64,000 nucleotides of DNA from a virus. Position 1 is the first letter of the stretch. Each line of letters begins with the position of its first letter. The notes under the pieces were generated by a model. The model saw only the letters and a list, made by a program, of their open reading frames with translations, was not told the DNA's origin and made no database searches. Positions 30,589 to 62,350 of the stretch are shown here, piece after piece. Both the position numbers and the translations under genes were made by a program. The DNA lies in the IMG/VR virus record IMGVR_UViG_3300029305_006221, positions 64,001-128,000 of that record; one strand, given 5' to 3'.

Positions 30589-30593
30589 TAATA

Positions 30594-35592: not shown

Positions 35593-35680
35593 TTGATTTT
35601 AAATAAAAATAATATAATTATAGGAGTTAAGAAGTGCTATATTTCTTAACTCCTAGTATTGGAAGACAGGAGGATATATA

Positions 35681-36010
35681 ATGGTAATTCAAAAAAACCT
35701 GAACTTTGTTTCAAATACTACAATTCCTGTTTTATCAAAGACATTTATTAATGCTTCAGGAGACGTATTATCTTTAGAGATAAAGGGTAATGGAGTTATT
35801 TACATTGATGGGCGCCTATAGGATGACTCAGATTGGTTCTCAATTGCGGGAATCAATTTAAGTGATTTTTCAGTGTCTAAAGATGGATTCACTAAACCTG
35901 GACTTTATGAGATAGGCGTCATTGGCATTAGACAACTTCGCGCGCGTGTTGAGGCTGTTCAAGACAATGTCTCTGTTCATGGTTAGATAATCAGCTCGGA
36001 GGAAACTTGA
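35681..36010 (+). CDS. hypothetical tail protein, 109 aa with 2 TAG
   Basis: GGAGGA RBS, then ATG 35681. Ends at TGA 36008-36010. Confidence 0.45.
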
Positions 36011-36011
36011 T

Positions 36012-36896: not shown

Positions 36897-36907
36897 GGAG
36901 GTAAAAT

Positions 36908-37453
36908 ATGGCTAGATATAAAGGTATTTTTAAGGCTGCCGCAAACTACGAGCCATAGATTGCTGCACCTTTTGATGCAAGAATGTTAGTTGATGCGAAA
37001 GCAGATCTAACAGATAGGAGCATTTGGCAATAGAGTAATGGAGATGTCTGGGTTTACTCAGGCATGATCGTAGCTGTTGCGAATGATGAAAATAGCGAAA
37101 ATAATGGCATTTATATGCTATTAAATAGCGCGCGCTTTGAAGAAGAGTCATCTTGGCGAAAGATGTCAGATGATAGTAGTATTGCCGCGCTTGATGCTGC
37201 TATTAAAGAATTACAAGAACAGATTAAGAATATTGAAATCTCTGGAGAAGGTAGTGTATCTATTGAAGTAGATACAATGGATGATCTTCCTAAAATTGGA
37301 GATAGCGATACTACTTATTATGTTAAAGAAAACTTAAGTATCCAAAGATGGAACGAAGCTACACAATCTTATTTAGCTTTTGGCGGATAGGGTAGCGCGC
37401 CTGAATTGGATATAAAAATTATTTACGGAGGAAATGCAAATGTCACAGATTAA
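36908..37453 (+). CDS. hypothetical tail protein, 181 aa with 3 TAG
   Basis: AAGGAGG RBS, then ATG 36908. Includes ORF-track ORF 37064..37390. Ends at TAA 37451-37453. Confidence 0.45.
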
Positions 37454-38786: not shown

Positions 38787-38799
38787 GGAGGAATAAATA

Positions 38800-41691: not shown

Positions 41692-41794
41692 TTGTAAACA
41701 CCTAATATAAACAATAACAGGCGCCTTTGGGCAACCCTGGGCGCCTGATAACCATAAATTAAAAAATTTTAATTACGAAAAGGAGAAAATTATT

Positions 41795-43693: not shown

Positions 43694-43706
43694 TTAAATA
43701 CACATA

Positions 43707-43736
43707 AGGGTGGGTAATTCTACCCACCCTCTTTTA
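43707..43736 (+). terminator. rho-independent terminator
   Basis: AGGGTGGGTA-attc-TACCCACCCT then CTTTT. Confidence 0.7.
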
Positions 43737-43800
43737 AAAGCCACTTGAGTTTGAAAGTGATAACTCAAGAATTTAATACTTGAAAAGGAGATAGTATATT

Positions 43801-44589
43801 ATGGCTACAACTGAAGCATTAAAATTTCGTATTGTGCATAAGCACGATACCGAAGAGAATTGGCTTAAAGCCACAAACTTTATCCCTAAGCAGGGAGAAA
43901 TAATTATTTATGATATTGACGCGAATTACAATTATGAGCGTTTTAAAATAGGTGATGGCACTAGTAATGTAAATGCATTGCCTTTTGCTAATAATGGTTC
44001 TAGTGAAACTACAGAAATATATGGAGACGCTCCAAATCTTCCTCTTTTAGATGAGCAAACTTATGACCAAGCTTGTATTGTTCCATTAAAAATTAGGGTT
44101 AAAAACAATACTATTAATTATAGCGGTACTGGAAATCTTCCTTATTACCAGTATTTTGATAGAACTTTAGAAGTACCCGCATACACTATGGAAGGAACCT
44201 TTTACTCAGAGACCTTTACCGTTAGTAATTATTCTGGAGGAATGGAAGATACGACTACTTATACTGTTAGTATAACTTTTAATAGAGGAAATTGGACGAT
44301 TAATAATGATTCTAATGGTATAATTACCTTTTTAATGGATGAAGAATTAACAACGGTAGGCGCAGGTAGGGCGCTAAGAGAAACATCCGATAGATTTAGT
44401 GTTACGACAGCATGGGATGGATCAAATGATGTTCCAGCTATTAAGGTAGGTAATACAGTTCTTACCGAAACAAAACTTAGTCAATTAATTGCGTACATTG
44501 ATGGTTTAGCAAGCGGTGATCCTGCAGTAGTTGAACCTATTGCGCAGAACTATCTTGACACGACAGTAGCAGAGGAGGCGACTTGGTAA
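43801..44589 (+). CDS. tail fibre or receptor-binding protein with a HylP-type N-terminal domain, 262 aa with no TAG
   Basis: Intact ORF. N-terminus MATTEALKFRIVHKHDTEENWLKATNFIPKQGEIIIYDID. Confidence 0.55.
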   Translation: MATTEALKFRIVHKHDTEENWLKATNFIPKQGEIIIYDIDANYNYERFKIGDGTSNVNALPFANNGSSETTEIYGDAPNLPLLDEQTYDQACIVPLKIRVKNNTINYSGTGNLPYYQYFDRTLEVPAYTMEGTFYSETFTVSNYSGGMEDTTTYTVSITFNRGNWTINNDSNGIITFLMDEELTTVGAGRALRETSDRFSVTTAWDGSNDVPAIKVGNTVLTETKLSQLIAYIDGLASGDPAVVEPIAQNYLDTTVAEEATW

Positions 44590-45689
44590 TGGGATTTAAT
44601 GAAAAAATGACTACATTAGCAGATGAAGTGAGAACGCTAAGTGGCGCTACTGAGGAAAAGAGTCTTGATGATTTAATATCTGATACTACTGCGGCTAATA
44701 GTGAGGTTGATGCGCAGACCGAGTTAATTGAACAGATTATGACTGCGCTTGATGGTAAGGCTGGCGGCTCAGGAGGAACAGTTCTTCCTACTCTTGATAA
44801 TCCTGCAAGTGCTACAGACATTCTTAGTGGAAAAGAAGCTATTGATGGTGAAGGTAATAAGATTACTGGTTCAATTGCTACTAAAACATCAAGTGATTTA
44901 ACTGCAAGCGGTTCTACGGTTACGGTTCCCGCAGGATATTATGCAAGTAACGCAAGTAAGTCTGTAGCTACTGTTACTCAAGCAACTCCTACAGTGTCGG
45001 TTAGCGCCAGTGGTTTAATTACAGCAAGTGCCACACAGAGCGCGGGATATGTAGCTTCAGGAACTAAGAGTGGAACTAAACAATTGACCACTAAAACAGC
45101 GACCACTTATACTCCTACTACTTCGAATCAAACAATATCAAGTGGAATTTATTTAACTGGCACTCAGACTATTAAAGGCGATGCAAATCTTAAAGCTGAA
45201 AATATTGCTTCTGGAGTTAGCATTTTTGGAGTAGCTGGAACTCATAGCGGAAGTGAAAATCTTGATACTGAATTAACTGAACAAGAAAGTTTAATTTCAG
45301 AGTTAAGCACTATCTTAGATAGTAAAGCAAGCGGAGGCTCTGGTGGAGGGAGCATAGAGACTTGCACTGTAACTATAAGCAGCAATTCATCATTTAATGG
45401 TATTTGGATTATATTTTATAATTCTTTAGAAAATAATTCCATTATAGGAAAAAAAAGTGACTTCCTTCTTAATTCTACATCTACAATAACTGTTAATGCG
45501 CTACAAGGCTCTGTAATTACCATAGTTGCTTTCGACATAGGGGTTTTTAACGACTATGGTATGAGTAATTGTAGTGTTTCCAATGGAGGCAATTTGTTAC
45601 ATGTGATGCAAGATTCTGTAAATATTGTAAATGTCGGTCTTGTAATCCAACTACCAAATGAAAACGATTGTACTATAACCTGTAGTTAA
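44583..45689 (+). CDS. receptor-binding-protein paralogue A, 368 aa with no TAG. Contains GGSGG linkers
   Basis: Intact ORF. The module ATQATPTVSVSASGLITASATQSAGYVASGTKSGTKQL...TIKGDANL is paralogous to the 46096..47151 gene. Confidence 0.5.
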   Translation: MVMGFNEKMTTLADEVRTLSGATEEKSLDDLISDTTAANSEVDAQTELIEQIMTALDGKAGGSGGTVLPTLDNPASATDILSGKEAIDGEGNKITGSIATKTSSDLTASGSTVTVPAGYYASNASKSVATVTQATPTVSVSASGLITASATQSAGYVASGTKSGTKQLTTKTATTYTPTTSNQTISSGIYLTGTQTIKGDANLKAENIASGVSIFGVAGTHSGSENLDTELTEQESLISELSTILDSKASGGSGGGSIETCTVTISSNSSFNGIWIIFYNSLENNSIIGKKSDFLLNSTSTITVNALQGSVITIVAFDIGVFNDYGMSNCSVSNGGNLLHVMQDSVNIVNVGLVIQLPNENDCTITCS

Positions 45690-45707
45690 TAAGGAGGTAA
45701 ATAAATA

Positions 45708-46076
45708 ATGTCAAATAAAACAAGATTACAAACAAATAACACCAACCTCCAAGCACTTATAGATAAGGCAAACGCACTTCCTGATGCTGGCGGAGGTTCT
45801 GGCGGAGGAGGAGACTTGGAAACTTGTACTCTTACATTATCCAGTATGGGCGTACCCACGGGCGACGAAATAGTTTATTATATAGATGACACTTTAACGC
45901 TTCAACAATCTAGTTTTCCCGCCTTTAGACAGAGTAAATCTGTAATCGTTATGAAAAATAGTATAATTTTTGTTGAATATGCGTCTGAGATCTCTGGAAG
46001 CATCGCTTCAATTGGTACTGGTACAAGTCATCAAGGATTTTTTATTTCGGGTGATGCAACTTTATCGAAAGGATAA
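45708..46076 (+). CDS. receptor-binding-protein paralogue B (short), 122 aa with no TAG
   Basis: N-terminus MSNKTRLQTNNTNLQALIDKANALPDAGGGSGGGG resembles the N-terminus of 46096..47151. Confidence 0.5.
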   Translation: MSNKTRLQTNNTNLQALIDKANALPDAGGGSGGGGDLETCTLTLSSMGVPTGDEIVYYIDDTLTLQQSSFPAFRQSKSVIVMKNSIIFVEYASEISGSIASIGTGTSHQGFFISGDATLSKG

Positions 46077-46095
46077 TGTAAAGGGGGATTAACAA

Positions 46096-47151
46096 ATGTC
46101 AAATTATAATACGCAATTACAAGCAAACAATTCCTCTTTGGAGGAAATTATAACACAGCTTAATGAGTTGCCCGATGTGGGAGGTACCGACCCTATTCTT
46201 CAAGATAAAACAGTAACTCCTTCAACGAGTCAGCAAACGGTAACTGCAGATAGCGGATATGATGGATTAGATACGGTAACTGTTAATGCAATGCCTACGG
46301 CTACACAGGCAACACCGAGTATTACTGTTAATTCAAGTGGACTGATTACTGCAACTGCAACTCAGACTGCTGGTTATGTGGCGGCAGGTACTAAATCTGC
46401 AACTAAACAGTTAGCATTTCAAGCTGCGCAAACCATTATCCCTGGTACAACTAATCAGACAATTGCATCTGGACAGTATTTAACTGGGGTGCAAACTATT
46501 AAAGGCGATGCTAATTTAGTAGCGAGCAATATCGTAAGTGGCAAGAGTATTTTTGGAGTGGTTGGTACTGCTAATAGTGGAGGTGGAAGTAGTGGCGGAG
46601 ATACAAGTGCAGAAGATGGACTAGTAACTAGAACTTTGACGACTTATACAAATGATAGAGTAACAACTATTGGAAATTATGCGTTTTATTCTTGCTCAAG
46701 CCTTACAAGCGTAAGTTTTCCACAATGTACAACTATTGGAGACTATGCGTTTCGATATTGCTCAAGCCTTACAACTGTAAATTTTCCAGCGGTTACAACT
46801 ATTGGTGCTTCTGCCTTTGTAGGTTGTTTAAAACTTGCGGGAGTGAGCTTTCCAGCAGTTACAGCTATTAACCTCGCTGCATTCCAAAACTGTTCAAACC
46901 TTACGACTGTAAGTTTTCCAAAAATTACAAATATTAGTTCTTACGCATTCCTACGTTGTTCAAAACTTGCTTCTATTTATCTTGCTGCATCTACAGTATG
47001 TTTTTTAGAAGGCTCAGACGCTTTTTCACAAACTAGTATCTGGTCAAACAAAGGCTCAATCTTCGTTCCGGCCTCCTTACTTGCTTCTTATAAAGCTGCA
47101 ACTAACTGGGTTTTCTTTTCAAATAGAATTTTTTCATATAACTTCACATAA
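46096..47151 (+). CDS. receptor-binding-protein paralogue C with a C-terminal BspA-type leucine-rich repeat domain, 351 aa with no TAG
   Basis: Intact ORF. Five or more tandem LRR units of the type TIG(N/D)YAF..CS.LT.V.FP. Shared module with 44583..45689. Confidence 0.55.
   Translation: MSNYNTQLQANNSSLEEIITQLNELPDVGGTDPILQDKTVTPSTSQQTVTADSGYDGLDTVTVNAMPTATQATPSITVNSSGLITATATQTAGYVAAGTKSATKQLAFQAAQTIIPGTTNQTIASGQYLTGVQTIKGDANLVASNIVSGKSIFGVVGTANSGGGSSGGDTSAEDGLVTRTLTTYTNDRVTTIGNYAFYSCSSLTSVSFPQCTTIGDYAFRYCSSLTTVNFPAVTTIGASAFVGCLKLAGVSFPAVTAINLAAFQNCSNLTTVSFPKITNISSYAFLRCSKLASIYLAASTVCFLEGSDAFSQTSIWSNKGSIFVPASLLASYKAATNWVFFSNRIFSYNFT
46680..46960 (+). repeat. tandem ~69-nt coding repeats encoding the BspA-like LRR units
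   Basis: Reiterated ...tgctcaagccttacaa(g/c)(c/t)gtaa(g/a)ttttcca.. units. Confidence 0.6.
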
Positions 47152-47183
47152 TATTTAAAAGAGATAAAAGGAGATAAAAGGAA

Positions 47184-48164
47184 ATGAAATTACAAATTTT
47201 AGTACCTCAGTATAAAGAAACGGAAGATATTATTAAACCATTACTTGATAGTATTGAGGTTCAACAAAATGTAAACCTAAAAGAAGATGTTGGTGTCATT
47301 ATAGTAAATGATGGCACTGATGTCCATCTATCAGAAGACTTCTTTAAGAGATATTCTTTCCCAATTGAGTATCATCTCAATGAACATAAAGGTGTTTCTG
47401 CAACTCGTAATGCTTGTCTTGATAAAGCAACTGCAGATTATGTAATGTTCTGTGATGCAGATGATATGTTCTACAATGCTTGCGGCTTATACATCATCTT
47501 CCGTGAAATAGAGAATGGTGGCTTTGATAGTTTAGTATCTGCATTCATTGAAGAGTCTCATATTCCAGATACTAAAGAACCGCTTTATATCAATCACGAT
47601 ATGGATTCTACTTTTGTGCATGGAAAAGTGCATCGTAGACAATACCTTATTGATAATAATATTCGTTGGAATGATAAGTTGACGATTCACGAGGATAGTT
47701 ATTTTAATTGTCTATGTCAGAGACTTGCAAAAGAGTTGAAGTATTCTCAGACTTCATTCTATTTGTGGCGTTGGCGCGATGCTTCGGTTTGCCGCCATGA
47801 TCCAAAGTATATTTTAAAAACCTATAACAATATGCTTGATAGTAATGATGCTCTTGTAACTCAATTCTTAAATCGCAAGAGAAAAGAGGATGCTCAATTC
47901 TATGTAGTAGGCATGATTTATGATGCATATTTCACAATGAATAAAGACGAGTGGCTAAATCAAGAGAATAAAAATTATCGTTATGCAACGGAGAGACGCT
48001 TTAAGGAGTATTGGCTAAAGTATAAAAAGTTGCATGATGAAATTCCTCAAGATATAAAAGCTCAGATTATTATGGGAATTAAGAATCGGATGTATGCTGA
48101 AGGTATGGTACTTGAAACGCTTACTTTTAACGAGTGGATTAAGCAAGTTGAAGCAATGGTGTAA
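47184..48164 (+). CDS. family-2 (GT-A fold) glycosyltransferase, 326 aa with no TAG
   Basis: Motifs VGVIIVNDGTD, CDADD (DxD) and ATRNACL. AAAGGAG RBS. Confidence 0.7.
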   Translation: MKLQILVPQYKETEDIIKPLLDSIEVQQNVNLKEDVGVIIVNDGTDVHLSEDFFKRYSFPIEYHLNEHKGVSATRNACLDKATADYVMFCDADDMFYNACGLYIIFREIENGGFDSLVSAFIEESHIPDTKEPLYINHDMDSTFVHGKVHRRQYLIDNNIRWNDKLTIHEDSYFNCLCQRLAKELKYSQTSFYLWRWRDASVCRHDPKYILKTYNNMLDSNDALVTQFLNRKRKEDAQFYVVGMIYDAYFTMNKDEWLNQENKNYRYATERRFKEYWLKYKKLHDEIPQDIKAQIIMGIKNRMYAEGMVLETLTFNEWIKQVEAMV

Positions 48165-48205
48165 AAACAAGATTTAACAGAACCCCAATTTTTTACAATG
48201 GAGGG

Positions 48206-48520
48206 ATGATAATGACTACAACTATTATATTATTGATAATAACGTCCATTTTTAACATAATTGATTATTGCCAAACAGCATACGCCATAGGACTTTTTGG
48301 ACTTGGCGTTGAGCTCAATCCAATAGGGCGCCTTATGTTTGCAGCCGATTGTGGATGGCTAAAATTAATTATTATGCCAATTTTATTGTTAGCTCTTGGC
48401 CTTATTATTAAAGCTGATAAGAGGCTGTCTTGGGAGGCTTGGCTTGTGACAATATTGTATCTTATAGTTATTATAAATAATTTTTATATGTTAATACGAG
48501 CGGGAGTATTTTTCTTCTAA
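48206..48520 (+). CDS. small polytopic membrane protein, 104 aa with 3-4 predicted TM helices. GtrA/flippase-like or holin-like
   Basis: Hydrophobic segments IILLIITSIFNII, IIMPILLLALGLII and LVTILYLIVIINNFYML. Immediately downstream of the GT2 gene. Confidence 0.45.
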   Translation: MIMTTTIILLIITSIFNIIDYCQTAYAIGLFGLGVELNPIGRLMFAADCGWLKLIIMPILLLALGLIIKADKRLSWEAWLVTILYLIVIINNFYMLIRAGVFFF

Positions 48521-48550
48521 AATAAAAATTCTATATTGGAGGATTAGATT

Positions 48551-48670
48551 ATGATGTGTTTTACCTGTCCTATATGTATCGCTTGTGCGATTATTACAGC
48601 AGTTTCTACTATGACTATGGGCGCCTTATGTGCGTGCTATAAGCATTTGAAGAAGAAAAACAAAGTATAA
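48551..48670 (+). CDS. small Cys-rich single-pass membrane peptide, 39 aa
   Basis: GGAGGA RBS. Reads MMCFTCPICIACAIITAVSTMTMGALCACYKHLKKKNKV. Followed by a terminator. Confidence 0.35.
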   Translation: MMCFTCPICIACAIITAVSTMTMGALCACYKHLKKKNKV

Positions 48671-48687
48671 TCAAGCTATGTTTCAGA

Positions 48688-48722
48688 TAGCAGGCCTTAG
48701 CCGCCTGCTATCTATTTTATTT
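48688..48722 (+). terminator. rho-independent terminator
   Basis: TAGCAGGC-cttagcc-GCCTGCTA then TCTATTTTATTTAATTT. Confidence 0.6.
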
Positions 48723-48787
48723 AATTTATTTATAACATTTTTTATATATAAATAGAAAACATTTATGCAAAGGAGGATTTGACAACA

Positions 48788-49282
48788 ATGGTCGAATTAT
48801 TAACAACCTATGGTGTGACTGGCATCATTGTTATTTTACTTATAGCTATTCCATCCATAGTTAATTTTATCTCTTGGTGTAAAAAGCTTTGGAAACAAAG
48901 ATAGGCTTTTGCACAAGAGAATGAACAAAGGGGATATCAGGAAGGTGTTGAAGCTGAAGAAGAGCAATTTGAAAAAAGTAAACTTGAAGAAAGAGTTAAA
49001 AAAATGGAATCTGATATCGTTGATTTAAAGGTAATTGTTTCTCAATAGAAAGAATTAATTGAGCAATTGACAGAGTCAGATATGCTTAATACTAAAGCTT
49101 GGATAAAAGAGCAACATGAAAAGTGGATTGCGCTTCAATGCATTGACAGCTAGAGTTTAGACCTGATTTTACAGCGCTATAAAATATATAATAAAGAAGG
49201 CGGCAATGGATGGGCGAAAAAAATGGTAGAAGAGATTAGTGCACTTCCTACTATTACTGTAATCCCAGTTCATAAAGACTGA
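48788..49282 (+). CDS. protein with an N-terminal TM helix followed by a coiled coil, 164 aa with 3 TAG. Holin-like or a lysis regulator
   Basis: AAAGGAGGA RBS, then ATG 48788. TM segment GVTGIIVILLIAIPSIVNFISW. Ends at TGA 49280-49282. Confidence 0.4.
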
Positions 49283-49319
49283 TATAAAGAATTTATAAAG
49301 AGATAAAAGGAGTGATTAT

Positions 49320-51005
49320 ATGATAGATACAAAAATTTTGTATCCTCCAATAATAGATGAAACATATTCTTGCACTAGCAGTATCGTTCCTATTGAATTT
49401 TTGCATACTGTTAATGTCGACACAGGTCGAATAATAGTAAAATTATAGACGTGGAATAAAGACGAAAACAAATGGGAAACCAATATTGCGTTATAGAACG
49501 TATCTAATAATAGTATAACCTTGCAAGATGGTAAAATAAGAATTTAGGCAATAACTATTGCGAAAAACTAGGATATTTCAGATGTATAGCAATGGCTTGA
49601 AGATTCCAATAACAAGCAATATCATTCAGTATGGAGTGATACTATAGAAAAGATTATTATCGACGGAATATATCTTGCTGGAGAAAATTATATGCCAGCT
49701 GATTCAACTCTTGATATATCTTCTTATTTATCAAATTAGGTGGAAGGATTAACTGATGTGCTCTATCAAGAGATTTCATTATATTCATATGCAGAAGACA
49801 AGTATCTAATTGAACCAGAAACTCGATACTATGAAGCAGAAGTCTGGACACATGTTTTAGATACTACTCCAATTGATAAAATGGAATATCTCTTTAAGAT
49901 AATGAGAAAATATGTGGCAAAATCAGGCTTTACTTTATCAAATACAACAACATGGTCGGAATATCCCGGAGAATGGTCACCAGAGAGTGAAGTAGCAAAA
50001 AAAGCAGAACAAGAATTAGATACTCTTAGCTTTATTAGTAAAATACAAAAATTTTATAGCTCTCCCTATGGGTCTGGTCAATACGGCGATATTTCTGGGA
50101 TAATAAGCTTTATATCTAATAATATTAAATTTTCATCTATGAGATTTACATGGAATGAAGGTGGATCAGATTTAATCAAAGAGCTATATTATGATAATAC
50201 AATGGTTTATTATTATCATAATGCGTTTGGGACAACTGGAGAAATTGAGGAATATTGGATTGATGATACTTTTAAATCTATTGAAATTATTATCCCTTCA
50301 GATAATGAAGAGTTAACTCAATGGATTAAAGAAAATACTTATACGAATAAATTTTCTTTAGTAAGAAAAAATATACTTACAAATAAAATTGAGAGAGTTG
50401 CAAAAAACGTTAATGACTATATAGATAAAACACTTGAAATAGGTGTTCCTTATGAGTATTACTATAAAGAAAATGGCATTACTACTAAAGAATTAATATG
50501 TATTGATTATGATCATATGGTTCTTTGTACTAAAGATAAATCATTGCGTATTTAGTATGATCCAAAAGTATCTGGGTTAAAGAGAAATAGTATAGATAAG
50601 TTAACTCCAACTTTAGGCGCACGTTATCCCAAGGTAATGAGAAATGGTATTTAGGATTATAGAAGTTTTACTATAAATGGTTTAATAACACTTGGATTTA
50701 ATGATGAAGGAAATGAAGACTTTATTTCTACTGGGTTGAAAGAGCAATATTAGGCGGCTAACCTTGACCCTAAGGCGCTTGATTTTGCACTTGAAAAGAA
50801 TTTTAGAGACAATGTATTAGAATTCTTATATTCTCCTGATGTAAAACTTTTCAAATCTGCCCCAGAAGGAAATATTTTTGTTTATTTAACAAATATTTCT
50901 TTAACACCAAAAGAAGAGTTAGGTAGAATGATTTATTCATTTTCAGCTTTAGCTACTGAAGTAGCAGAAGCAAACGGTGTATCTTATCAAAAATACTTCT
51001 CTTAA
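49320..51005 (+). CDS. hypothetical structural protein (baseplate or tail type), 561 aa with about 9 TAG
   Basis: AAAAGGAG RBS, then ATG 49320. Frame 0 joins ORF-track ORF 49740..50555. Ends at TAA 51003-51005. Confidence 0.5.
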
Positions 51006-51019
51006 TAAAGGAGGGTATT

Positions 51020-52888
51020 ATGAGATATTATTATAATAAAGATATTTTAAACTATATAGACTCTTTATTAATTAAAGAATAGTATGTAAGACTTACTATT
51101 TTAAATGATAAAGATATTCCTTTAAAAAGTATCTCTGGATTGGCGACAGGAGGAAGTATCAATGTTAATGCAAAATCAGTGGTTAGACGAACTGGTTCCG
51201 TTTCACTTATTTCTATTGCTAATGATCCAGATGATGCAATTGCGCACGTGACCGATATTGAGAATCTTATATCAATTAATAAAAGGGTGAAGATAGAGAT
51301 TGGTTTGCGCAATACAGATAATCAATATTTAGATTATGATTACTTTTGGTTTAATCAAGGTGTTTTTGTAATTAAAAGCGCATCGGTATCAAACAACGCT
51401 TAGAATATTTCTATTTCAGTTTCTATAAGTGATAAAATGTCGTTGCTTAATGGAGATTGCGGCGGACGCTTCACAAGTGCACTCATACACTCGCCTATTG
51501 CTGTTGAAAACGGTGATGAAGAGCCTGTTTTATTTACTACTTTAATTCATGAATTGGTAAGTGAAATGGGTGGTATACCAGAAGATAAAATAATGATAGA
51601 AGATATTGAAGATGAATTTAAAGCTGTTGTAAGATGGACTGGTTTAGGAAATATTTTTATGATTCCTATCGAAAATGATAGATATAAATTAACTTCTATT
51701 CCTCAAGAAGGAGCTTTACTGTTTAAAAACCAAGAGAATTTAGGATATAAAAAAGAAAAGTTTACTTATCCTGGAACTCTTGAATCTAAAGCTGGAGAAA
51801 CAGTAACTTCAGTATTAGACAAGATTAAAAACGCTCTAGGTAATTATGAATATTACTTTGATGAAAATGGTATATTTCATTTTAAAGAAATCAAAAACTA
51901 TTTGAATGAAGGTAGTTCTATTGACGATTTAAATGAAGCTATTAATGAAAAGTATTTAAAGAATTTATCTAATGGTAAAGTGGAATATTCTTTTGAAAAC
52001 AATGCTTTAATTACGTCTTACAATAACTCACCTCAATATACAAATATTAAAAATGATATTATTATTTGGGGAAAGGCTGAAGATAAATAGGCGCCAGTGA
52101 GATATCATTTGATTATAGATACTCCTCCAGAGGAGCGAGACTGGTTTACTATTGATGATGTAGAGATTGACTATCTTGGCAATATCAAAGCAAAAAAAGT
52201 GACTAGATATTCTGCCAATGATAAACCTGAAAATGCAATTAAAGCATCTAACTGGCAATAGCAATATTATTTAAGCATTATTGCAGATAGTATTCAAACC
52301 AATCTTGCTAAAGAGTTTAAAGAAGAGTTCCCTAAGATATTTGATATTGGCTTTAATGGCGCGACGGCAAATGGAAAAACAGGATGGAAATATACTCTTA
52401 GTTCTAGTTCTATAAAATATTTCTTAGATATGCTAGATCCTAAATCTTTAGTTGGAGACAATATGATTAAGGATATGTCTGCTGAAAAGATAGGATAGAG
52501 AAATACAGTTATAAACGATAATGCTGTAAATTGTGTTTTTGAACCTAAGTTTGATGAAGTATTGTTTATTAATGAAGATGATGCTGCTCCAGTTGGTAAA
52601 AAATATATTGTTTTAACAGACGATATTAAGAATTATGTTTCAATAGGAGTAGCTTAGGTTTCTGCTTATGAAACTGTGCGCTCGGCGCTTCATACTTATA
52701 CAAGTTATGCAAATACAGTTTCTTTATAGACAATTCCCGTTTATCACTTAAAACCAAATTCAAGAATTTACATTAAAGACGATAATAGTGATATAGATGG
52801 AGAGTTTATGATAAACTCTATTACCATTCCTCTTGATGCAAGTGGTATGATGAATATTAGTGCTTCTAAAGCAGATGAACGAATATAA
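51020..52888 (+). CDS. hypothetical structural protein, 622 aa with about 8 TAG
   Basis: AAGGAGGG RBS, then ATG 51020. Frame 2 joins ORF-track ORFs 51140 and 51437. Ends at TAA 52886-52888. Confidence 0.5.
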
Positions 52889-52896
52889 AAAATAAA

Positions 52897-52923
52897 AAGA
52901 ACTCAGCGATGAGTTCTTTTTTT
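52897..52923 (+). terminator. rho-independent terminator. First of two ending the structural operon
   Basis: AAGAACTCA-gcga-TGAGTTCTT then TTTTT. Confidence 0.75.
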
Positions 52924-52972
52924 ATTGAAAGAAATAAAATATTAAAATTTTGAATAAAAATAGAAAAAATGA

Positions 52973-53003
52973 AGTTCTCATCATATTGATGAGAACTTTT
53001 TTT
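52973..53003 (+). terminator. rho-independent terminator. Second of the tandem pair
   Basis: AGTTCTCATCA-tatt-TGATGAGAACT then TTTTTT. Confidence 0.75.
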
Positions 53004-53099: not shown

Positions 53100-53564
53100 A
53101 TGAATATGTTCAATAATCTACCTCAGTAGGCGCCAGCGTATTATTATGCGCCACAAACTTATCAAAGACAAGCTTCTTAGGTGGCAGAGATGACTGCTCC
53201 AGTTTAGCCAACCTACACGCAGCCTTTGATGATGCAACCAAATTATATTAAAGGTCGCCCAGTAGTTTCAATCGATGAAGCAAGAGCTAGTTAGATTGAT
53301 TTAGATGGCTCGCTCTATGTTTTTCCAGATCTGGGAAATAAGAAAATTTATACCAAACAGATAAATATGGATGGAACTGCGGCTTTTAATATTTTTGAAT
53401 TAAGCGGCGCCGGAGCCGATTAGAGCGCCTCGACTCCAGTATACGTTACTAAAGATGAGCTTGATGAAATATTAGCCAGATTTAAAGAAAGCTTAGTCTA
53501 GGAAAAGAATACTGAAGCTGGTCCCGCGCCTAAGCCACAAACTGTAAAAACATTTAATCTATAA
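53100..53564 (+). CDS. hypothetical protein with a Q/P/Y-rich low-complexity N-terminus, 154 aa with 6 TAG
   Basis: GGAGAA RBS, then ATG 53100. Frame 0 is open to TAA 53562-53564. Confidence 0.4.
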
Positions 53565-53575
53565 GGAGGTATATA

Positions 53576-53824
53576 ATGGCTTATAATGTAGATCCTGCAT
53601 ACTTATTAATGCAAATGCGTCAGGGTAAAAATCCTGAGCAACTTATGATTGATATTCTTGAAGGAGAAGCTTCACAGAACCCAATCATTGGCAACCTATT
53701 AACTATGGCAAAAGATAATCGTACGGCAGATATAGAAAAATTTGCGCGTAATCTTGCTAAGGAGTAGGGTATTGATTTCGATAAAGAATTCAGTAGATTC
53801 AAAAAGCAGTATTTTGGACTCTGA
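53576..53824 (+). CDS. hypothetical small protein, 82 aa with 1 TAG
   Basis: AAGGAGG RBS, then ATG 53576. Ends at TGA 53822-53824. Confidence 0.4.
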
Positions 53825-53861
53825 TTCTAAATAAATATTTTTTTATAAAGGAGGACATAAT

Positions 53862-53969
53862 ATGTTCAACACTTCAAACGGATATTCATTATCCGACATC
53901 GCTGCTGTAACAGGTGGCAACAGAGGAAACGGAGGATTCGGAGACGGCTTTGGAGAGAATGGATGGTAA
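53862..53969 (+). CDS. Gly-rich small peptide, 35 aa, with a double-glycine-leader-like N-terminus
   Basis: AAAGGAGGA RBS. Reads MFNTSNGYSLSDIAAVTGG then NRGNGGFGDGFGENGW. The LS..(D/E)(I/L)..V.GG pattern resembles class II bacteriocin/microcin leaders. Confidence 0.3.
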   Translation: MFNTSNGYSLSDIAAVTGGNRGNGGFGDGFGENGW

Positions 53970-54150
53970 ACCGATCTGCCATCTTTAAATCGCGGAATTA
54001 AGCTGGAACCCTGAAATGGGAATCAGAACCGAAGGCTATACTAAGTATAGTCAGGGGCAACGCATAGCGGGTGAAAAGATATAATCCCGCCACGAGGCCG
54101 CGACTATTAAAATTTTTTGGAAAAATTAATAGAAAAGATATGCTGACCTA

Positions 54151-54179
54151 TTACAAATAACAAGTAATAGAACTATAAG
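54151..54179 (+). promoter_or_regulatory. candidate promoter TTACAA-17-TATAAG
   Basis: ctaTTACAAataacaagtaatagaacTATAAGata. Sits 22 nt upstream of ATG 54201. Confidence 0.35.
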
Positions 54180-54200
54180 ATAAAAAGCTTATAGGATAAC

Positions 54201-54973
54201 ATGAAGGGATCATTCTTCTTTTCCTATTCACTGGATGGGGAAGAAACGGCTGGGGCAATGGAGGTTCCGAAGGAGGAAGTGGATACGTTCTTAATCCCTA
54301 CTTCTATGGATTTGGCTCTAGTTCGGGCGCTTGTGCAACTAAAGACGACGTTCGCGCGGCTGTTGATCAGCAAACCCTTATTTCTAAACTTGATAACCAA
54401 ACCTACGGTCTCGCTGATAGCACTTATTCATTAAGTAATGCTATCACATCTGGATTCCATGGAGTAGATAATGCAATCTGTACTCTTGGATACCAAAATC
54501 AGGCAGGCTTTACCGCACTTGGTAATCAACTTGCACAATGCTGCTGCGACACTCGTGCCGCTATCGCAGACGTAAAAACTCAGGGTGTAATTAACACTAA
54601 TGCCCTATCTAGCCAGTTAGCGGCTTGCTGCTGTGACATTGAGAAGGCTAATATGGAAAACCGTTTTGCTGCTCAAACCTATAATTGCAACACGCTTCAG
54701 GCTATTGACAAACTTGGTGATAGAATCATTGACTTCATGACGCAAGATAAGATCGCTTCTCTTACTGCGGAGAATCAATCTCTTAAGTTTGCGGCATCTC
54801 AAGCAAATCAGAATGCATTTATCACTGCTAACCAAGAGGCTCAAACAGCAGAACTTATTCGTAGACTTGGCAGAGATTGCCCAATTCCTGCGTATGTAGT
54901 TCCAAATCCTAATTGCTGCTATACCCCTCAGGTTCAGATCGCATCTTCTAACTGCGGCTGCGGTTGCTTCTAA
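54201..54973 (+). CDS. Cys-rich, Gly-rich secreted-like protein (CCCD repeats, C-terminal NCGCGCF), about 258 aa. The start codon and the body are in different frames
   Basis: ATG 54201 with an AGGAT RBS is in frame 0. The clearly coding frame is frame 2, stop-free from 54200 to TAA 54971-54973, and includes ORF-track ORF 54653..54973. That frame has no ATG, GTG or TTG before 54653. The two frames meet around the T4 run at 54218-54221. Confidence 0.4.
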
Positions 54974-54998
54974 TCTAAGAATGGAGGCTTGAAAAAGA

Positions 54999-55418
54999 AT
55001 GGAATTAATTGCTAATGCTTTACAAACAGTTGGTGCTGGCGAAAATGTTCAGTTTACAGATGAAGTTGTTAGTGGATGTAACTCGATTCTCCATCGAGCA
55101 GGAAGTGGCTTAATTACCTTGCGCGGCATTACCAATCAGTGTCGCGCAAGATTCAAGGTTTTCTTTAGCGGAAATATTGCTATTCCTGCAGATGGAACCG
55201 TAGAAGCCATTTCAATTGCCATCTCGGTAAATGGAGAGGCTATTGCTTCAACAACTATGATTCAAACTCCTGCTGCGGTAGAGGAATTTGCAAATGTGGC
55301 TAGCGCAGCTTATATTGATGTTCCAGCAGGTTGCTGCATTTCTGTTGCAGCAAGAAACACAAGTACACAAGATATCGATGTACAAAACGCAAATTTAATC
55401 ATAGAAAGGGTGGCATAA
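54999..55418 (+). CDS. BclA C-terminal-domain-like (C1q/TNF-fold) protein, 139 aa
   Basis: Intact ORF. Ends in NANLIIERVA (compare BclA ending ...SIIIEKVA). Internal ISIAISVNGEAIA resembles BclA LTIQVNGVPV. Confidence 0.5.
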   Translation: MELIANALQTVGAGENVQFTDEVVSGCNSILHRAGSGLITLRGITNQCRARFKVFFSGNIAIPADGTVEAISIAISVNGEAIASTTMIQTPAAVEEFANVASAAYIDVPAGCCISVAARNTSTQDIDVQNANLIIERVA

Positions 55419-55419
55419 T

Positions 55420-56124
55420 ATGGAAAATTTAAAGAAAATGAAAGAATGTCTTATTGGCGTTGCTGAAGGACAAGTTTATGGAAACCTTGAAAAAGTCAAT
55501 GCTGAAGAGCTTGGCGAAGTAATGGATATGATTAAAGACCTTTCTGAAGCTGTTTACTATTGCACTATAACAGAATCAATGGAAAAGCAAGCTAATGAAG
55601 AAAAAGGCAGTATGCCTATGTATTATTCTCCATACCCAGCAGAAATGTATGATCCTCGTTATGATGAGAGATATTATCCTGGCACTATGTATGCGCAAGG
55701 CGGCAATAGTGGTGGCAGAGGCTCTTCATCAAATGGTGGTAACGGCGGTCGTTCTTCTGGTGGAAACAATGCTCGCGGAGGCGGCACTAGAGGATATATG
55801 GATGGAATGATCAGACGCTATGATGACGGACAAACATCCTACTCTATGTATAATGATGGAGGAGCTTCTTCATATTCTATGTATCATGAACCTATGCCCT
55901 ATATTTATAGAGACGGTATGATGCAGGACCCAAGACATGCAATGATGCGCGACCCTAAAGAAGGAAGAAGCGGTGAGCGCCGCAAGATGTATATGGAAGG
56001 AAAAGGACATCATGACAAGTCCAAACAAATGCAGGAACTTGAATCTTATATGCAAGAGCTTGCAAATGATATGACTGAAATGATTCAAGATGCATCTCCA
56101 GAAGAGAAACAACTTCTTCAATAG
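55420..56124 (+). CDS. Tyr/Gly/Met-rich low-complexity protein, 234 aa. Spore-coat-like composition
   Basis: Intact ORF. Reads ...MYYSPYPAEMYDPRYDERYYPGTMYAQGGNSGGRGSSSNGGNGGRSSGGNNARGGGTRGYMDG... Confidence 0.5.
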   Translation: MENLKKMKECLIGVAEGQVYGNLEKVNAEELGEVMDMIKDLSEAVYYCTITESMEKQANEEKGSMPMYYSPYPAEMYDPRYDERYYPGTMYAQGGNSGGRGSSSNGGNGGRSSGGNNARGGGTRGYMDGMIRRYDDGQTSYSMYNDGGASSYSMYHEPMPYIYRDGMMQDPRHAMMRDPKEGRSGERRKMYMEGKGHHDKSKQMQELESYMQELANDMTEMIQDASPEEKQLLQ

Positions 56125-56156
56125 AAGATCTCTATGTTAGCATCTAAAGTAAAATA

Positions 56157-56480
56157 ATGTTTACTATTAATGGAGAATATTGGTAGATAGTTTTAGTTTA
56201 TCCATACGACGTTGCACTTTTAATGCCAAATGGTAGATATGCTTTAGGAGCGTGTAATGATACTACTAAAACTATCTATATCAGTAATGCGCTTCATAGT
56301 GAGATGTTTGAGCAGGTATTGTGTCATGAATTAGTACATGCCTCAATGTTTGCGTATAATGTCCTGTTAGAGCACGATGAAGAGGAGTTAATTGCAGAAA
56401 TTATTTCTGTGTTTGGAGAGGAGATTATAGACATTACTGATATGATGTTTGAAAGAATAAAAAGAGGAAGATATAGATAA
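56157..56480 (+). CDS. ImmA/IrrE-family-like zinc metallopeptidase (HEXXH) small protein, 107 aa with 1 TAG
   Basis: ATG 56157. An in-frame TAG at 56184 joins it to ORF-track ORF 56223..56480. Motif TIYISNALHSEMFEQVLCHELVHA. Confidence 0.45.
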
Positions 56481-56495
56481 TATATCTTCCTCTTT
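56461..56495. terminator. bidirectional palindromic terminator between two convergent genes
   Basis: AAAGAGGAAGATATA-gataa-TATATCTTCCTCTTT, with the TAA of the ImmA-like gene in its loop. Confidence 0.6.
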
Positions 56496-56498
56496 TGT

Positions 56499-58797: not shown

Positions 58798-59279
58798 TAG
58801 CTAATCCTTTCTGCATATTGATTTGGACTAGCAAGTTTTACTCCAAGTATATCATCAAAGTGAGATTCCATATCTGGAATATAGCGTCCAAATTTTACAA
58901 TAATATTTGAAAAATGTTTTAATTGATTTAATTGATCTTCAATCTCATCATCATAATATCCTGTGTAAATAACAACATCATCTTCTATTAAATAACATTC
59001 TCTAAAAACAAAGAGAAAGTCATATAAGTCTTCAAAGGTATCAAAAGGCTCCAATCCTTGAAATACTATTGCATGTGTAAACGGAGTCTTTTGATATAGC
59101 TCAATAATAGAGTCTATTGAATAATCAAGAGTTGGCATATTTGCCAATGTACTATTTTGACACACTGGCATGCCGCATTCTCGATCACATTTAAAACCTT
59201 TGCAATAAGGAGTTTCTATTGTTAAAGAAGGAATTTTATAATTAACGAAATCTTCTGTTATAATTCCTTTGACTTTCAT
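58797..59279 (-). CDS. nrdG: anaerobic ribonucleotide reductase activating protein (small radical-SAM NrdG type), 160 aa
   Basis: Cys cluster YCKGFKCDRECGMPVC. Overlaps the nrdD stop. Typical nrdD-nrdG arrangement. Confidence 0.65.
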   Translation of the reverse strand: MKVKGIITEDFVNYKIPSLTIETPYCKGFKCDRECGMPVCQNSTLANMPTLDYSIDSIIELYQKTPFTHAIVFQGLEPFDTFEDLYDFLFVFRECYLIEDDVVIYTGYYDDEIEDQLNQLKHFSNIIVKFGRYIPDMESHFDDILGVKLASPNQYAERIS

Positions 59280-62200
59280 TTTTTATTTACTGGCTCCCAT
59301 TTTCTCATTTTATATTCATTTGTGCGCTCTTTTGACCAAGTTTTAATCGGTGTATAAAAGCCTACAATTCTTGTATATTCGGTTTCAACTGGACGACCAC
59401 AAACGGGGCATTCGTGACCATAAAACGCATGATTATTATCGCAAGCTTGGATTTTAGTATTAAAAGCAAAATATGTTACTCCAGCATCAGAAATATAGTT
59501 AACCATTTCCCAAGCTTTATCAAAATTGTCAAATGGAGCATCAATATTGGCGTGAAGAATTGAACCTCCATTGCAGTAGCCATCAAACTCCGCGGCAATT
59601 CTAACACGTTCCGCAAGAGTAGTTTGAATACCAAGAGGAATAAATTGATTGCCATATAAAGGAAGATCAAAGATATCAGAATCTGGATAGAAGAATTTAT
59701 CTTTACGCATTAGTTTGGCGGCGGCTGACTCTCCAGGGATCTGCTCTGTGTTAATATGATAGTCGGCACTCATATCTTCAATAAACTGATCAGCAACCTC
59801 ACGCATCGTTTGGAAAATTCTCTGACCAAGCGAAGACGCTTCTTCTGTATAGTATACATTTCCAAAATCATCTGTGCGAGTATAGCCAAAGCGCTTCATT
59901 GTTTCATAAACGCCAATAAAGCCAATAGTGTTATAGAGATGTTCAAAATCTACAAGCCCCATAGAGAAATTGGGGAGAAGTCCTTTTTCAACATTACGAC
60001 GAATAATATTTCTAACACAATGAAGAGCCTGAAGATTAAGTAAAGTGCGCTTTCTTAATTCCATTAGATATTCAAATTCACTATTCGTATCAAGCGCCAG
60101 GCGCGCAAGATTAATAGTAGATACTTTTACAGAACCAACTTTAAGCGCAGTACCTCCGATACTATTAAAATAACCCAGATCCTTAATATCGCTCTTTAAA
60201 CGGCAACAGTTGGAAAGTGAAGTCACAGAGTCATCAATAAACAAGTTACTATCTGACCAACGCATGTTATGCTTTACGGCCCAGCGCGCAAATTCCTCAT
60301 CTTGGAACTCTCCATCTTGTTTTAGCAAAGAGATTGAAAGCACTGGGAAAGTAAACATATTATGAGATCTAATTTCTGCAACTTCTTCCATGTACCATTT
60401 TTGAAACTCAATAATATCCTCTTCATAGTCAATCATAAAGCTGCCATCGGGAAATTCGCTACCGCCAAATAATGCTTCATAATAGGGGCGATCAAATACA
60501 CTTGTGTTAGTAAAAGCGCTTTGCGAACCATCACGAACATAAGGCTGATTTACGGCGTAGACAAAACGCTGAAAGTTCTGGCGCGCATATTTTTCAGCAT
60601 TGCCACTTGAAGCTAAGCCAAGGTAATCAGACTCAACGTCTTTATGCCAAAAATACCACATATAAGGAATAAGGTTAGGCAAACCGACGGCGCCTGATGA
60701 ACGATTAGATGCATAACTAATATATTCTTTAACGAAGTCTACAAAAGTTGTTAAATGTTTTGCAGGTTCGGGATTAAATGGAGCTCCTATAAAATAAAGT
60801 CCTTTTTCGGCTAAATCTTTTAGATCATAAGCAAAACAGTTATGAGATAGAATATTATTACAAATAAAATGACCTGTTTCTGTTGTTAAGTCATATACCT
60901 CAGGGCATTCATCAATATACTCTGAGTTATCAATAATTGAAACCCATCCATAGTTGTATTCATATTGTTTATTTTTAAAATTGCCTTTTCGAGTTAAAGG
61001 CGTATATTTTTCTTGAATTTTAACGCTTCCAATGTTTAAAAAATATTCCTCATTTGTAAGAGTAAAGCCGATACCGAACATTGGTAGCTTTTGTTCAAAG
61101 CTTCCAATTCTATTATATCTAAATGGTGTTCTATCTCCTACAAAGATTCCTTTTGAGTGCAAATACATGCTTAACTGGCGACAAAGAACTTCTGAAGCAA
61201 TACGGATATGACAATGTCTATTCTTATATCCATCAATAGTACCATCTCCATCAATCATTCCTGCAATAACCCCATCCATAAAATCTGATGGTAATTGCAT
61301 AAAATAAGAAGGCAAACATTTATTAACAGAAGTTTGTTTATTGAATAAAGAAATTAACCATTTTTGGAATTCACTGTTGTGCAGATAAAATTTTCTATCT
61401 CCACTTTCTGCAAAAGGAATTTCATGAGTATTTAAAATTTGTCTCATTTTCTCTGCTTGAATAGAATTTAATTTTTGTGCTATAACAAATTGTCTATTAT
61501 TTATAACATTGCCTTCAGATAAGGCCATGCCAGTGACCCATCCTAAATCTTTTAATTGATTTTGTTTAAAAGGCAATTCGCAATTGAATGAGCAAGAGGG
61601 TTGAATGGTAAAGACACGATATTCATCATTTACATCTTTTGCAGGAATGTCGCCACAATCTGTAATAATAGGATGGTCTTCAGTTACAATTTGCGATAAA
61701 CCATTTGCTAACTTAATAAAACGCATAGACTTATTATTTGTGTGTTTAACTGCGCGAGTAACCTTAGTCCAACATTTTTCTCCAGTTTCTTCATTAATAT
61801 CAAGTACCTCAATATTTTTTGGAAATAATGCTTTTTGCTCAATAGATACATCATAACGCTCTTCTGCTTCGGTATCCATTGCAAGAATATTGTCATATAA
61901 CTCTTTTAAAGCAAAAGTATATTCACGGTGTATTCTATCTCTTACTGTTACAAGCTCTTCACCTTTATAACAGTAGTGTTTAAAAGTGCTAGTATCAGCA
62001 TCATGCATGTAAAGCTGTCCTACCCATTCAGATTTTAACCATTCATTGGCTGTTTTAAATCCAAACTCTTTTTGCATTTCATAATGAATTTTATTATATG
62101 CCAATAATTTTCTATGTGGTTTTGGCATTTCATTAAGAAGTGTTACTATATCTTTTTTACTGACGTTACTATTGCCATCAATACTCGCATCCGCAACTAC

Positions 62201-62350
62201 TTTGGTATCAATAAAATTATCAATAAAATCAACATAGCTCAATTGATTATCGTCAAAGCCATTGAGTCTAGCAATATCTGTTCCATATTCAGCCTAAAGC
62301 TTATTATAGGCTGTGGTAAAATTCTTTTTTAGTCTAACATTAATGTCCAT
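59276..62350 (-). CDS. nrdD: anaerobic ribonucleoside-triphosphate reductase with an intein, 1024 aa from ATG 62350. One in-frame TAG at codon 19. The ORF track starts at TTG 62242
   Basis: Extein motifs LYMHDADTSTFKHY / CFAYDLKDL, and a C-terminal Zn ribbon and glycyl-radical region (CPVCG, RIVGFYTP). Upstream of TTG 62242 the frame stays open through TAG 62296-62294 to ATG 62350. That ATG overlaps the nrdH stop (ATGGACATTAATG). Encoded N-terminus MDINVRLKKNFTTAYNKL(TAG)AEYGTDIARLNGFDDNQ. Confidence 0.85.
60839..61972 (-). mobile_element. intein (378 aa) with a LAGLIDADG homing-endonuclease domain, inserted in nrdD
   Basis: N-terminal Cys (CYKGEELVTV), block B TEDHPIIT, LAGLIDADG-like motifs LGWVTGMALSEGNV and GVIAGMIDGDGTIDG, C-terminal ILSHN followed by +1 Cys. 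The extein junction HY|CFAYDL matches the conserved NrdD N-terminal region. Confidence 0.7.

Follow-up and report, generated by a model that had tools for sequence, protein, structure and literature searches.

We analysed a 64,000-nt stretch of viral DNA (IMG/VR record IMGVR_UViG_3300029305_006221, positions 64,001 to 128,000; the whole stretch is referred to as the window) and show that positions 53100..56480 form one predicted transcription unit bracketed by terminators, an accessory cassette of six genes that we label g1–g6. The third gene, g3, is shown by its predicted exons to be one gene interrupted by an intron of 239 nt, the removal of which restores the reading frame exactly. The fourth gene, g4, is shown by structure modelling to encode a predicted C1q/TNF-fold jelly roll of the ten-strand type, similar to the BclA C-terminal domain (CTD) and ExsF of the Bacillus exosporium. 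The cassette moves en bloc between phages and prophages of gut Clostridia, and its invariable core is g3 followed by g4. Related contigs and loci that we compared carry L-numbers. The features of the locus are the following (aa, amino acids; ORF, open reading frame; E, expectation value):

52894..52999, plus strand: terminator pair, from the terminator scan and the sequence
53100..53564, plus strand: g1, 154 aa, six in-frame TAG codons; phrog_21718 (E 3e-8); syntenic homologues
53576..53824, plus strand: g2, 82 aa, one in-frame TAG codon; syntenic homologues in 80/80 viral loci
53862..53967, plus strand: predicted g3 exon 1, codons 1-35 plus the first base of Trp36
53968..54206, plus strand: predicted group I intron without ORF, 239 nt
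54207..54973, plus strand: predicted g3 exon 2; spliced g3 has 290 aa and no TAG codon; phrog_16490 (E 6e-50) across the junction
54999..55418, plus strand: g4, 139 aa, no TAG codon, clean ORF; phrog_20016 (E 5e-55)
55420..56157, plus strand: g5, 245 aa, one TAG codon (56122-56124) read through
56157..56480, plus strand: g6, 107 aa, one in-frame TAG codon, HELVH motif; phrog_1233 (E 2e-14)
56460..56496, no strand assigned: bidirectional terminator hairpin, 16 bp

The split of g3 is apparent from the reading frames. The frame that carries the LA.CCCD motifs is closed by a stop codon at 54197-54199, open from 54200 and devoid of a start codon until 54653, and the upstream 35-aa ORF terminates at a TAA directly after ...GENGW. 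When position 53967 (T) is joined to 54207 (GG), a Trp codon arises, and the product reads ...GENGWWIILLFLFTGWG... across the predicted spliced junction GGATGGTGGATCATT, with the exon ends GGAGAGAATGGATGGT|GGATCATTCTTC. The spliced 290-aa protein matches phrog_16490 in one stretch over the junction. At least 8000 homologues of g3 (clusters at 90% identity) were found; the best are 88–90% identical over 100% of the length and are encoded by single ORFs of 286–291 aa. Close homologues without the intron read ...GENGW|W|IILLFLF, and their alignment is free of gaps at the junction. A sister phage from the same sample (L014) has GGCTGGTGGATCATT at the place where the window has GGATGGT[239 nt]GGATCATT.

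Because of the intron, every gene caller breaks g3 up and reports a spurious peptide of 35 aa and an ORF of 106 aa that lacks its 5' part. A prediction made earlier from the letters of the window (hereafter the original prediction) had taken 53862..53969 for the gene of a 35-aa Gly-rich peptide, which is exon 1 of g3, and 54201..54973 for one protein, an interval that holds no single frame, since the ATG at 54201 opens another frame that ends at 54434. It had also considered that the short peptide, with its double-glycine (GG) leader-like N-terminus, might belong to a secreted-peptide or bacteriocin-like system. The conserved S-L-x-D-I-A-A-V-T-G-G sequence at the g3 N-terminus does fit the hydrophobic/acidic spacing of GG leaders. 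The presumed peptide is, however, an exon of a 290-aa protein, and the idea therefore falls; moreover, the second Gly of the GG motif is not conserved among homologues, the double-glycine leader family TIGR01847 gave no match in the NCBIfam search, and Pfam and PHROG searches identified no C39 peptidase and no ABC transporter among the six cassette proteins. We reject this explanation.

The 239-nt insert is, by its predicted secondary structure, a group I intron, and self-splicing is predicted. In P1, the exon sequence GAUGGU pairs with GCCAUC at 53978-53983 and places a U.G wobble at the 5' splice site, while P10 is formed between GAUCU at 53973-53977 and the start of exon 2, GGAUC, at 54207-54211. 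The 3' end of the intron is the G at 54206, a terminal G that is kept in all three g3 introns compared. The core extends from P3 to P9.1 and contains the S-like element AAGAUAUGCUGA and the R-like element UCAGGGGCAACG. Diverged introns interrupt the identical g3 codon in L041 (82% identity) and L110 (77%), both about 175 kb in size, and carry compensatory changes in P1, P10, P4, P5, P6a, P7.1/7.2, P8, P9 and P9.1. The covariation extends to both splice-site helices: P1 reads CAUGGU/GCCAUG in L041 and CUUGGU/GCCAAG in L110, and P10 reads GGAUU/AAUCU in L110. We also considered the 239 nt as a pseudogenising insertion or as a translational bypass element; both were rejected in view of the conserved, covarying group I architecture and of the insertion at the same codon in diverged phages.

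A core motif of 34 nt recovers 40 IMG/VR contigs, from which an alignment of 34 sequences was built. RNAalifold on these sequences yields P3, P4, P5, P6, P6a, a P7.x hairpin, P8, P9 and P9.1, with double compensatory changes in 30/46 pairs. With the P7 pseudoknot included, 94.3% of the alignment cells are paired compared to 32–41% with slid partners, and the covariation score amounts to 0.48–0.49 compared to ≤0.09 in the slid controls; none of 500 shuffles (0/500) reaches the observed values. P3 covaries in the relative from Listeria phage LIS04. P7 is invariant across the family and hence shows no covariation. Our first assignment of P7, GGCA/UGCU, was replaced by GCAUA/UAUGC; both candidates are invariant, and therefore covariation cannot decide between them.

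The family is not recognized by the Rfam group I model. RF00028 was not matched in the window at the gathering threshold or in 53800-54300 at E≤10, and the other family members gave no RF00028 match at E≤1. The covariance model built from the family (R1), in turn, matches an RF00028-certified intron at L200:1484-1657 with E 4.5e-4, while the Twort introns (orf142) are missed by both the nhmmer family profile and R1. We thus face an intron family of at least 40 viral contigs that escapes the Rfam group I model. Its distribution is patchy: of 167 cassette loci, only two (L041 and L110) carry the intron, and among the 40 contigs with the core motif, the intron interrupts g3 in 7 and lies in other genes in 31. 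Related introns split terminase genes in Listeria phage LIS04 and in Exiguobacterium phage vB_EauM-23; in the Exiguobacterium phage, an HNH endonuclease ORF separates the two intron halves.

Several further observations concern this family. Its members (L178-L217, 40 IMG/VR contigs) come from many metagenome samples, are compact and share the core GGTGAAAAGATATAATCC..CCACGAGGCCGCGA. In L178, L186, L188 and L213, the distance from the core motif to g3 exon 2 exceeds that in the window by about 0.5–0.7 kb, which suggests that these introns contain additional DNA, probably an endonuclease ORF. L110 contains a second, more diverged member at 10547-10713 (minus strand), about 3.3 kb downstream of its g3 intron, and in L200 a family member (982-1129) and the canonical Rfam group I intron (1484-1657) are about 350 nt apart.

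The boundaries of the transcription unit were derived from a terminator scan. Two tandem hairpin-plus-T-run terminators at 52894-52921 and 52971-52999 close the tail operon upstream of the cassette, as the original prediction had stated, and the 16-bp hairpin at 56460-56496 lies downstream and faces convergent minus-strand genes. Tail genes lie upstream, among them 51020..52888 with a match to a PHROG tail protein; the minus-strand genes downstream encode a RuvC-like resolvase, a dUTPase and NrdD. The separation of an accessory block from the structural operon, the unusual composition of each protein in translation and the assignment of 54999..55418 as a gene, a clean ORF of 139 aa, all hold as originally proposed. 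In the standard bacterial code, the block appears fragmented and g1 is shattered. Accordingly, 53100..53564 counts as a gene because the phage reads TAG as sense, and with its six in-frame TAG codons it does not under the standard code. For 55420..56124, described as a 234-aa protein, the gene stands and its end does not: the TAG is read through to TAA at 56155-56157, giving 245 aa. ENA gene calls on the same sequence give 245 aa and then 107 aa, and homologue alignments likewise pass the g5 TAG. Two members, g2 (53576..53824) and g6 (56157..56480), were absent from the earlier gene list, and g5 and g6 overlap in TAATG, the g5 stop and g6 start. The concern raised at the time, that the composition might be explained by frame errors under recoding, was therefore justified in part, as the gene models of the block needed correction.

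The in-frame codon counts clearly argue that the phage reads TAG as a sense codon. Four late ORFs contain 69, 38, 9 and 7 in-frame TAG codons, the first two being 21085..30588 (69 in 3167 codons) and 30643..35592 (38). Homologues of g1, g2, g5 and g6 align across the TAG positions, which are variable sites where they have K, N, Q, T or S. ARAGORN found no tRNA gene in the 64-kb window, and the suppressor is therefore expected elsewhere in the 136-kb genome. The genes g1, g2 and g6 cannot be completed without TAG suppression, so that the complete set g1–g6 requires it and late expression is implied; the TAG counts of g1, g2, g5 and g6 thus suggest that the cassette is expressed late. The core differs: g3 and g4 contain no TAG in 428 codons, and their GC content is 0.41–0.47 compared to 0.30 in the upstream tail genes. 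From these values, the g3-g4 core looks either recently imported or independently translatable.

Within the window, TAG occurs as sense throughout the late genes (4572..52888 and 53100..56480), and read-through yields two very large late ORFs, 21085..30588 (3167 aa) and 30643..35592 (1649 aa). Two segments, 36000..48200 and 53860..56160, have a higher GC content (0.38–0.47 compared to 0.29–0.33 elsewhere) and few or no TAG codons. They contain tail-fibre-like genes and g3–g5, and their composition suggests modules recently acquired from standard-code phages.

Both core proteins have distinctive sequences. The g3 N-terminus carries the conserved motif S-L-x-D-I-A-A-V-T-G-G, followed by Gly-rich stretches around a short Trp-flanked hydrophobic helix; exon 2 is predicted to encode this helix, a Gly-rich linker and two long helices at about residues 80-159 and 165-256. 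The C-terminal part contains two CCCD motifs, the sequence PIPAYVVPNPN and a Cys-rich tail that ends with NCGCGCF. Among 160 cassette loci, CCC[DE] occurs in 136 and the Pro-rich motif PxYxVPNPN in 63. In g4, a 139-aa domain by itself without signal peptide, Cys27, Cys48 and Cys112-113 are invariant, and its homologues form at least 5469 clusters at 90% identity. In a separate observation, the window's own version of the N-terminal g3 motif, S-L-S-D-I-A-A-V-T-G-G (53886..53918, g3 residues 9-19), is retained even in homologues with as little as 46% identity; a role in processing or targeting is conceivable, perhaps as a signal for the g6 protease, and none of the profiles searched supports a leader or processing role.

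The AlphaFold2 (AF2) model of g4 has a predicted local distance difference test (pLDDT) score of 81.5 and a predicted template modelling (pTM) score of 0.78. Foldseek finds the F-BclA CTD (9H38, E 9e-7) and BxpB (8D02, TM score 0.77) and further lists ExsFA (7R1M) and BclA (1WCK, 3TYJ), then C1q/TNF members and phage tail-fibre heads. Among predicted viral structures, the best matches are stand-alone gut-phage proteins of 130–145 aa, two of them automatically named 'BclA protein'. No sequence link accompanies this similarity: g4 matched neither BclA_C (PF18573) nor another C1q/TNF family nor any family at all in Pfam and NCBIfam at E≤1 or in phmmer searches of the PDB at E≤10. The original description of 54999..55418 as BclA-C1q-like is consequently right at the level of the predicted fold, where exosporium proteins are the best matches, and lacks the BclA_C profile match. 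For g3, Pfam and NCBIfam gave no match at E≤1, CotY/ExsY, CdeC and YjcZ-type tiny transmembrane sporulation proteins included, so its likeness to coat proteins is compositional only. The AF2 monomer of g3 (proxy P0121, 53 sequences) reached pLDDT 52 and pTM 0.21 and was not used for a fold search. Phmmer matches of g3, g4, g6 and an alternative g4 partner (type B, described below) in the PDB were at chance level, neither g3 nor g4 contains GXY repeats, and the exosporium leader TIGR03720 was not found in NCBIfam.

These results bear on the proposal, part of the original prediction, that the genes form a lysogenic-conversion moron that adds BclA/ExsF-like, Cys- and Tyr-rich proteins to the spore coat or exosporium of the host. 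Exosporium proteins are the best fold matches of g4, the composition is rich in Cys, Tyr and Gly, the hosts are Clostridia, the core genes are free of TAG, and in temperate relatives (L127, Dulem virus 33) g3-g4-g5' adjoins the integrase, a classical moron site. The proposal is weakened by the need of g1, g2 and g6 for TAG suppression and by the setting at the late-operon end of a large phage, with no integrase seen in the 64-kb window. A collagen stalk and the TIGR03720 leader are missing, and the Pfam and NCBIfam searches, which cover the checks suggested for BclA_C (PF18573) and CdeC/CotY-like proteins, returned no BclA_C, CotY/ExsY or CdeC match. Furthermore, g3-g4 is present in Butyrivibrio virus Ceridwen, isolated on Butyrivibrio fibrisolvens. 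This species is not known to sporulate. Taken together, we consider a spore-directed function distinctly improbable.

Of the remaining proteins, g1 is rich in Gln, Pro and Tyr in its N-terminal half and closes with a small conserved domain, and in g5 helical N- and C-terminal parts flank a low-complexity centre rich in Tyr, Gly, Arg and Met; tblastn of both against annotated phages retrieved 'hypothetical protein' entries only. The g6 product is a putative minimal zinc-metallopeptidase-like protein with an HExxH motif (HELVH), which matches DUF6782, Peptidase_M78 and SprT-like in Pfam below threshold and, weakly, MJ1213. Some cassettes carry a different protein at the g4 position, type B (L004:6889-7329; L002:8532-8909, CPD1_040). 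Type B, which is unrelated to g4, has 125–146 aa, begins with a Cys cluster (MxCxxxCxxCN...), continues as a beta-rich body and matches nothing in Pfam or the PDB. Its layout may resemble that of Ena-type spore pilins.

We determined the conservation of the cassette in viral and bacterial genomes. All six genes occur in identical order in MT835516 (L005) and MT835477 (L004). A scan of IMG/VR based on g4 confirmed at least 584 loci, of which 80 were kept for tblastn, and the order g1-g2-g3-g4-g5-g6 was found in 80/80 when truncation at contig ends is allowed for. Species-representative genomes of GTDB contain 158 confirmed loci, mostly in Lachnospiraceae, Oscillospiraceae, Acutalibacteraceae and Ruminococcus and including the isolates Lachnospira intestinalis CLA-AA-H89B and Lachnospiraceae JLR.KK009, in which the cassette lies in prophages (L105 and L111). 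In the 80 genome loci kept for comparison, the g3-g4 pair is present in 76 and BLAST detects the full set of six in 18; where g1, g2 and g5 are undetectable, divergent analogues occupy the same places, for example a helical domain with GGYSR repeats. Isolated carriers are Butyrivibrio virus Ceridwen, with the g3-g4 pair, and C. perfringens phages of CPD1 type (CPD1, vB_CpeS-17DYC), with g1–g3 and type B in place of g4; their cassette proteins are all annotated as hypothetical.

The position of the block varies between carriers. It follows the tail genes and faces RuvC/dUTPase/NrdD in the window, L017 and L041, is flanked in L005 and L111 by a gp7-like head protein on one side and the scaffold/major capsid genes on the other, and adjoins the integrase in L127 and Dulem virus 33. 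The carriers are phages of 40 kb, 55–60 kb and 135–175 kb, in which the positions are non-homologous. Homologues are thus not ordinary tail-fibre tips inside structural operons, a possibility that had been raised against the accessory reading; the block moves as a unit. In a separate comparison, 0.7–1.7 kb of extra DNA was found between cassette genes in L018, L019, L020, L025, L026, L039, L056, L082 and L111. In L111, a 371-aa ORF at 6819-7934 lies between g3 and g4; visual inspection of its N-terminus suggests a C5-cytosine methyltransferase. The cassette looks like an insertion hot spot.

The main rival to the function that we favour (see below) is a virion accessory fibre or decoration, in which a g3-g4 fibre on the capsid or tail would aid adsorption in the manner of collagen/C1q-tipped fibres or jelly-roll receptor-binding heads. 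The location directly after the tail genes in the window, the location among head genes in L005 and L111, TAG codons as in late structural genes, and the 'viral fiber' or 'spike' annotation that partial g3-like coiled coils have received in one Bacteroides phage and one crAss-like phage are in line with such a role. On the other hand, the occurrence of one and the same block in phages of such different sizes and at non-homologous positions is unusual for a part that docks to a virion, the cassette has its own terminators, g3 contains a membrane-like hydrophobic helix, and PHROG provides no structural annotation. We judge a virion part unlikely. A further explanation is an envelope device that would support lysis or exclude superinfecting phages, with g3 as a wall-spanning, membrane-anchored rod (XhlA-/Sie-type) and g4 masking the receptor. 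The N-terminal hydrophobic helix of g3 and the long helical region behind it would suit this purpose, in small phages (Ceridwen, Dulem 33, CPD1, L004) the cassette usually lies a few kb downstream of lysin/holin genes, and TNF-like domains can be lectins, as in the BC2L-C and PLL-type matches of g4. Six conserved genes, however, far exceed the needs of known exclusion or lysis-accessory systems, Pfam, PHROG and PADLOC searches revealed no similarity to holins, spanins or Sie proteins, and g4 has no secretion signal. An exclusion or lysis device therefore appears improbable.

We tentatively favour, as a possible function of the cassette, a self-contained assembly of a rod with a C1q head that is made late in infection and acts on released material or at the cell envelope. 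As the block occurs in phages that differ greatly in size and architecture, and at varying genome positions, it probably works on its own at the envelope of the infected cell or on released material and is not a fitted virion part. In the proposed assembly, g3 would be anchored by its short Trp-flanked hydrophobic helix and extend as a long alpha-helical, probably trimeric rod with a Pro-rich and Cys-rich tail, and g4 trimers would cap or cross-link this tail. Contact might be made through the Cys clusters of both proteins or through binding of a Pro-rich peptide in a cleft, by analogy to ExsF, whose trimers hold Pro-rich exosporium leader peptides in inter-subunit clefts (ExsF/F-Anchor structure, PMC12357932). 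The two proteins together would make up a BclA-like fibre or layer in two pieces, with g1 and g5, which have Tyr/Gln/Gly-rich disordered regions, as matrix or adaptor proteins and g6 as a candidate maturation protease. In a TAG-recoded phage, the complete set would be available only once TAG is suppressed, i.e., during late lytic growth.

Several points weigh against this proposal. Pfam, NCBIfam and PADLOC return nothing above threshold for the six proteins. The trimeric rod is suggested on the basis of a poor g3 model (pLDDT 52). Without a signal peptide, g4 cannot reach an outward-facing g3 before lysis. Direct contact between g3 and g4 is a hypothesis built on the Cys clusters and the ExsF analogy, and some cassettes (L004) replace g4 by type B while their g3 keeps PAYVVPNPN. 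This replacement and the presence of the Pro motif in only 63/160 loci make specific docking of the Pro motif to g4 doubtful; the Cys clusters shared by g3 and g4 suggest cross-linking instead, which would accommodate the type-B partner. Finally, g3, g4 and nearly all of g5 are TAG-free and GC-rich, and therefore the core could be expressed without suppression.

In a bolder version, which we consider quite unlikely, the cassette would be a viral kit for building a disulfide- or tyrosine-cross-linked fibre layer similar to the exosporium nap, with g3 as rod, g4 as head, g1 and g5 as matrix and g6 as protease. If true, such a layer would form on infected cells, debris or virions independently of sporulation, and the kit, widespread in phages of gut Clostridia, would be the phage equivalent of the BclA/ExsF system and might even serve as its evolutionary reservoir. 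The g3 and g4 families are very large, and no member has a name or function. A literature search on phages with BclA/exosporium and on phage group I introns found nothing that describes the cassette, and no source names any of its proteins, in agreement with the earlier statement that no equivalent has been described. The persistence of all six genes as the block moves among unrelated phages makes it a strong candidate for an autonomous role in the biology of gut phages and their hosts, and the fold link to exosporium proteins provides a concrete and testable functional hypothesis.

Apart from the cassette, the neighbouring NrdD gene (window 59276..62350, minus strand, 1024 aa) contains an apparent intein with LAGLIDADG endonuclease motifs. 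The insert spans ...KHY|CYKGEEL to ILSHN|CFAYDL, and the JGI record has a weak Intein_splicing match.

Comparison with known systems places each component next to a described counterpart. Stop-codon reassignment in late genes of TAG-recoded gut phages has already been described; as in these phages, in-frame TAG codons are dense in the structural genes of the window and present in g1, g2, g5 and g6, whereas the 64-kb window is without suppressor tRNA. With about 107 aa and an HExxH motif, putative g6 resembles minimal zinc metallopeptidases (M78/ImmA-IrrE, SprT-like and minigluzincins such as MJ1213), although all matches are below the curated thresholds and, unlike in ImmA/ImmR pairs, no helix-turn-helix repressor is adjacent. 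The predicted intron shares with group I introns of Gram-positive phages (Twort orf142; HNH-bearing terminase introns) the U.G pair in P1, P10, the terminal G, the P3-P9 core with R- and S-like elements, the exact in-frame insertion into a late gene and the sporadic distribution. It differs from them in that the g3 intron has no ORF and is invisible to RF00028, and g3 is a new host gene for introns. By these predicted features, the intron is a new subfamily of group I introns.

Compared to the BclA CTD and the F-BclA tip (1WCK, 3TWI, 9H38; PF18573), g4 has no profile match and 14–20% identity in structural alignments. It is free-standing, without collagen-like GXY stalk and N-terminal leader, and it is encoded by a phage next to a Cys-rich coiled-coil protein. 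ExsFA/BxpB is a stand-alone protein of the exosporium basal layer that anchors BclA and F-Anchor (7R1M, 8D02, 9H3D). As a free-standing domain, g4 is more similar to ExsF/BxpB than to BclA, and the binding of a Pro-rich partner offers a possible mechanistic analogy for g4 and the Pro-rich tail of g3 (PMC12357932). In contrast to ExsFA/BxpB, however, g4 has no sequence relationship with these proteins, its partner g3 is alpha-helical and not collagen-like, and the Pro motif of g3 is C-terminal and not universal. In its predicted structure, g4 represents a new variant of the C1q/BclA/ExsF fold that stands alone as a protein.

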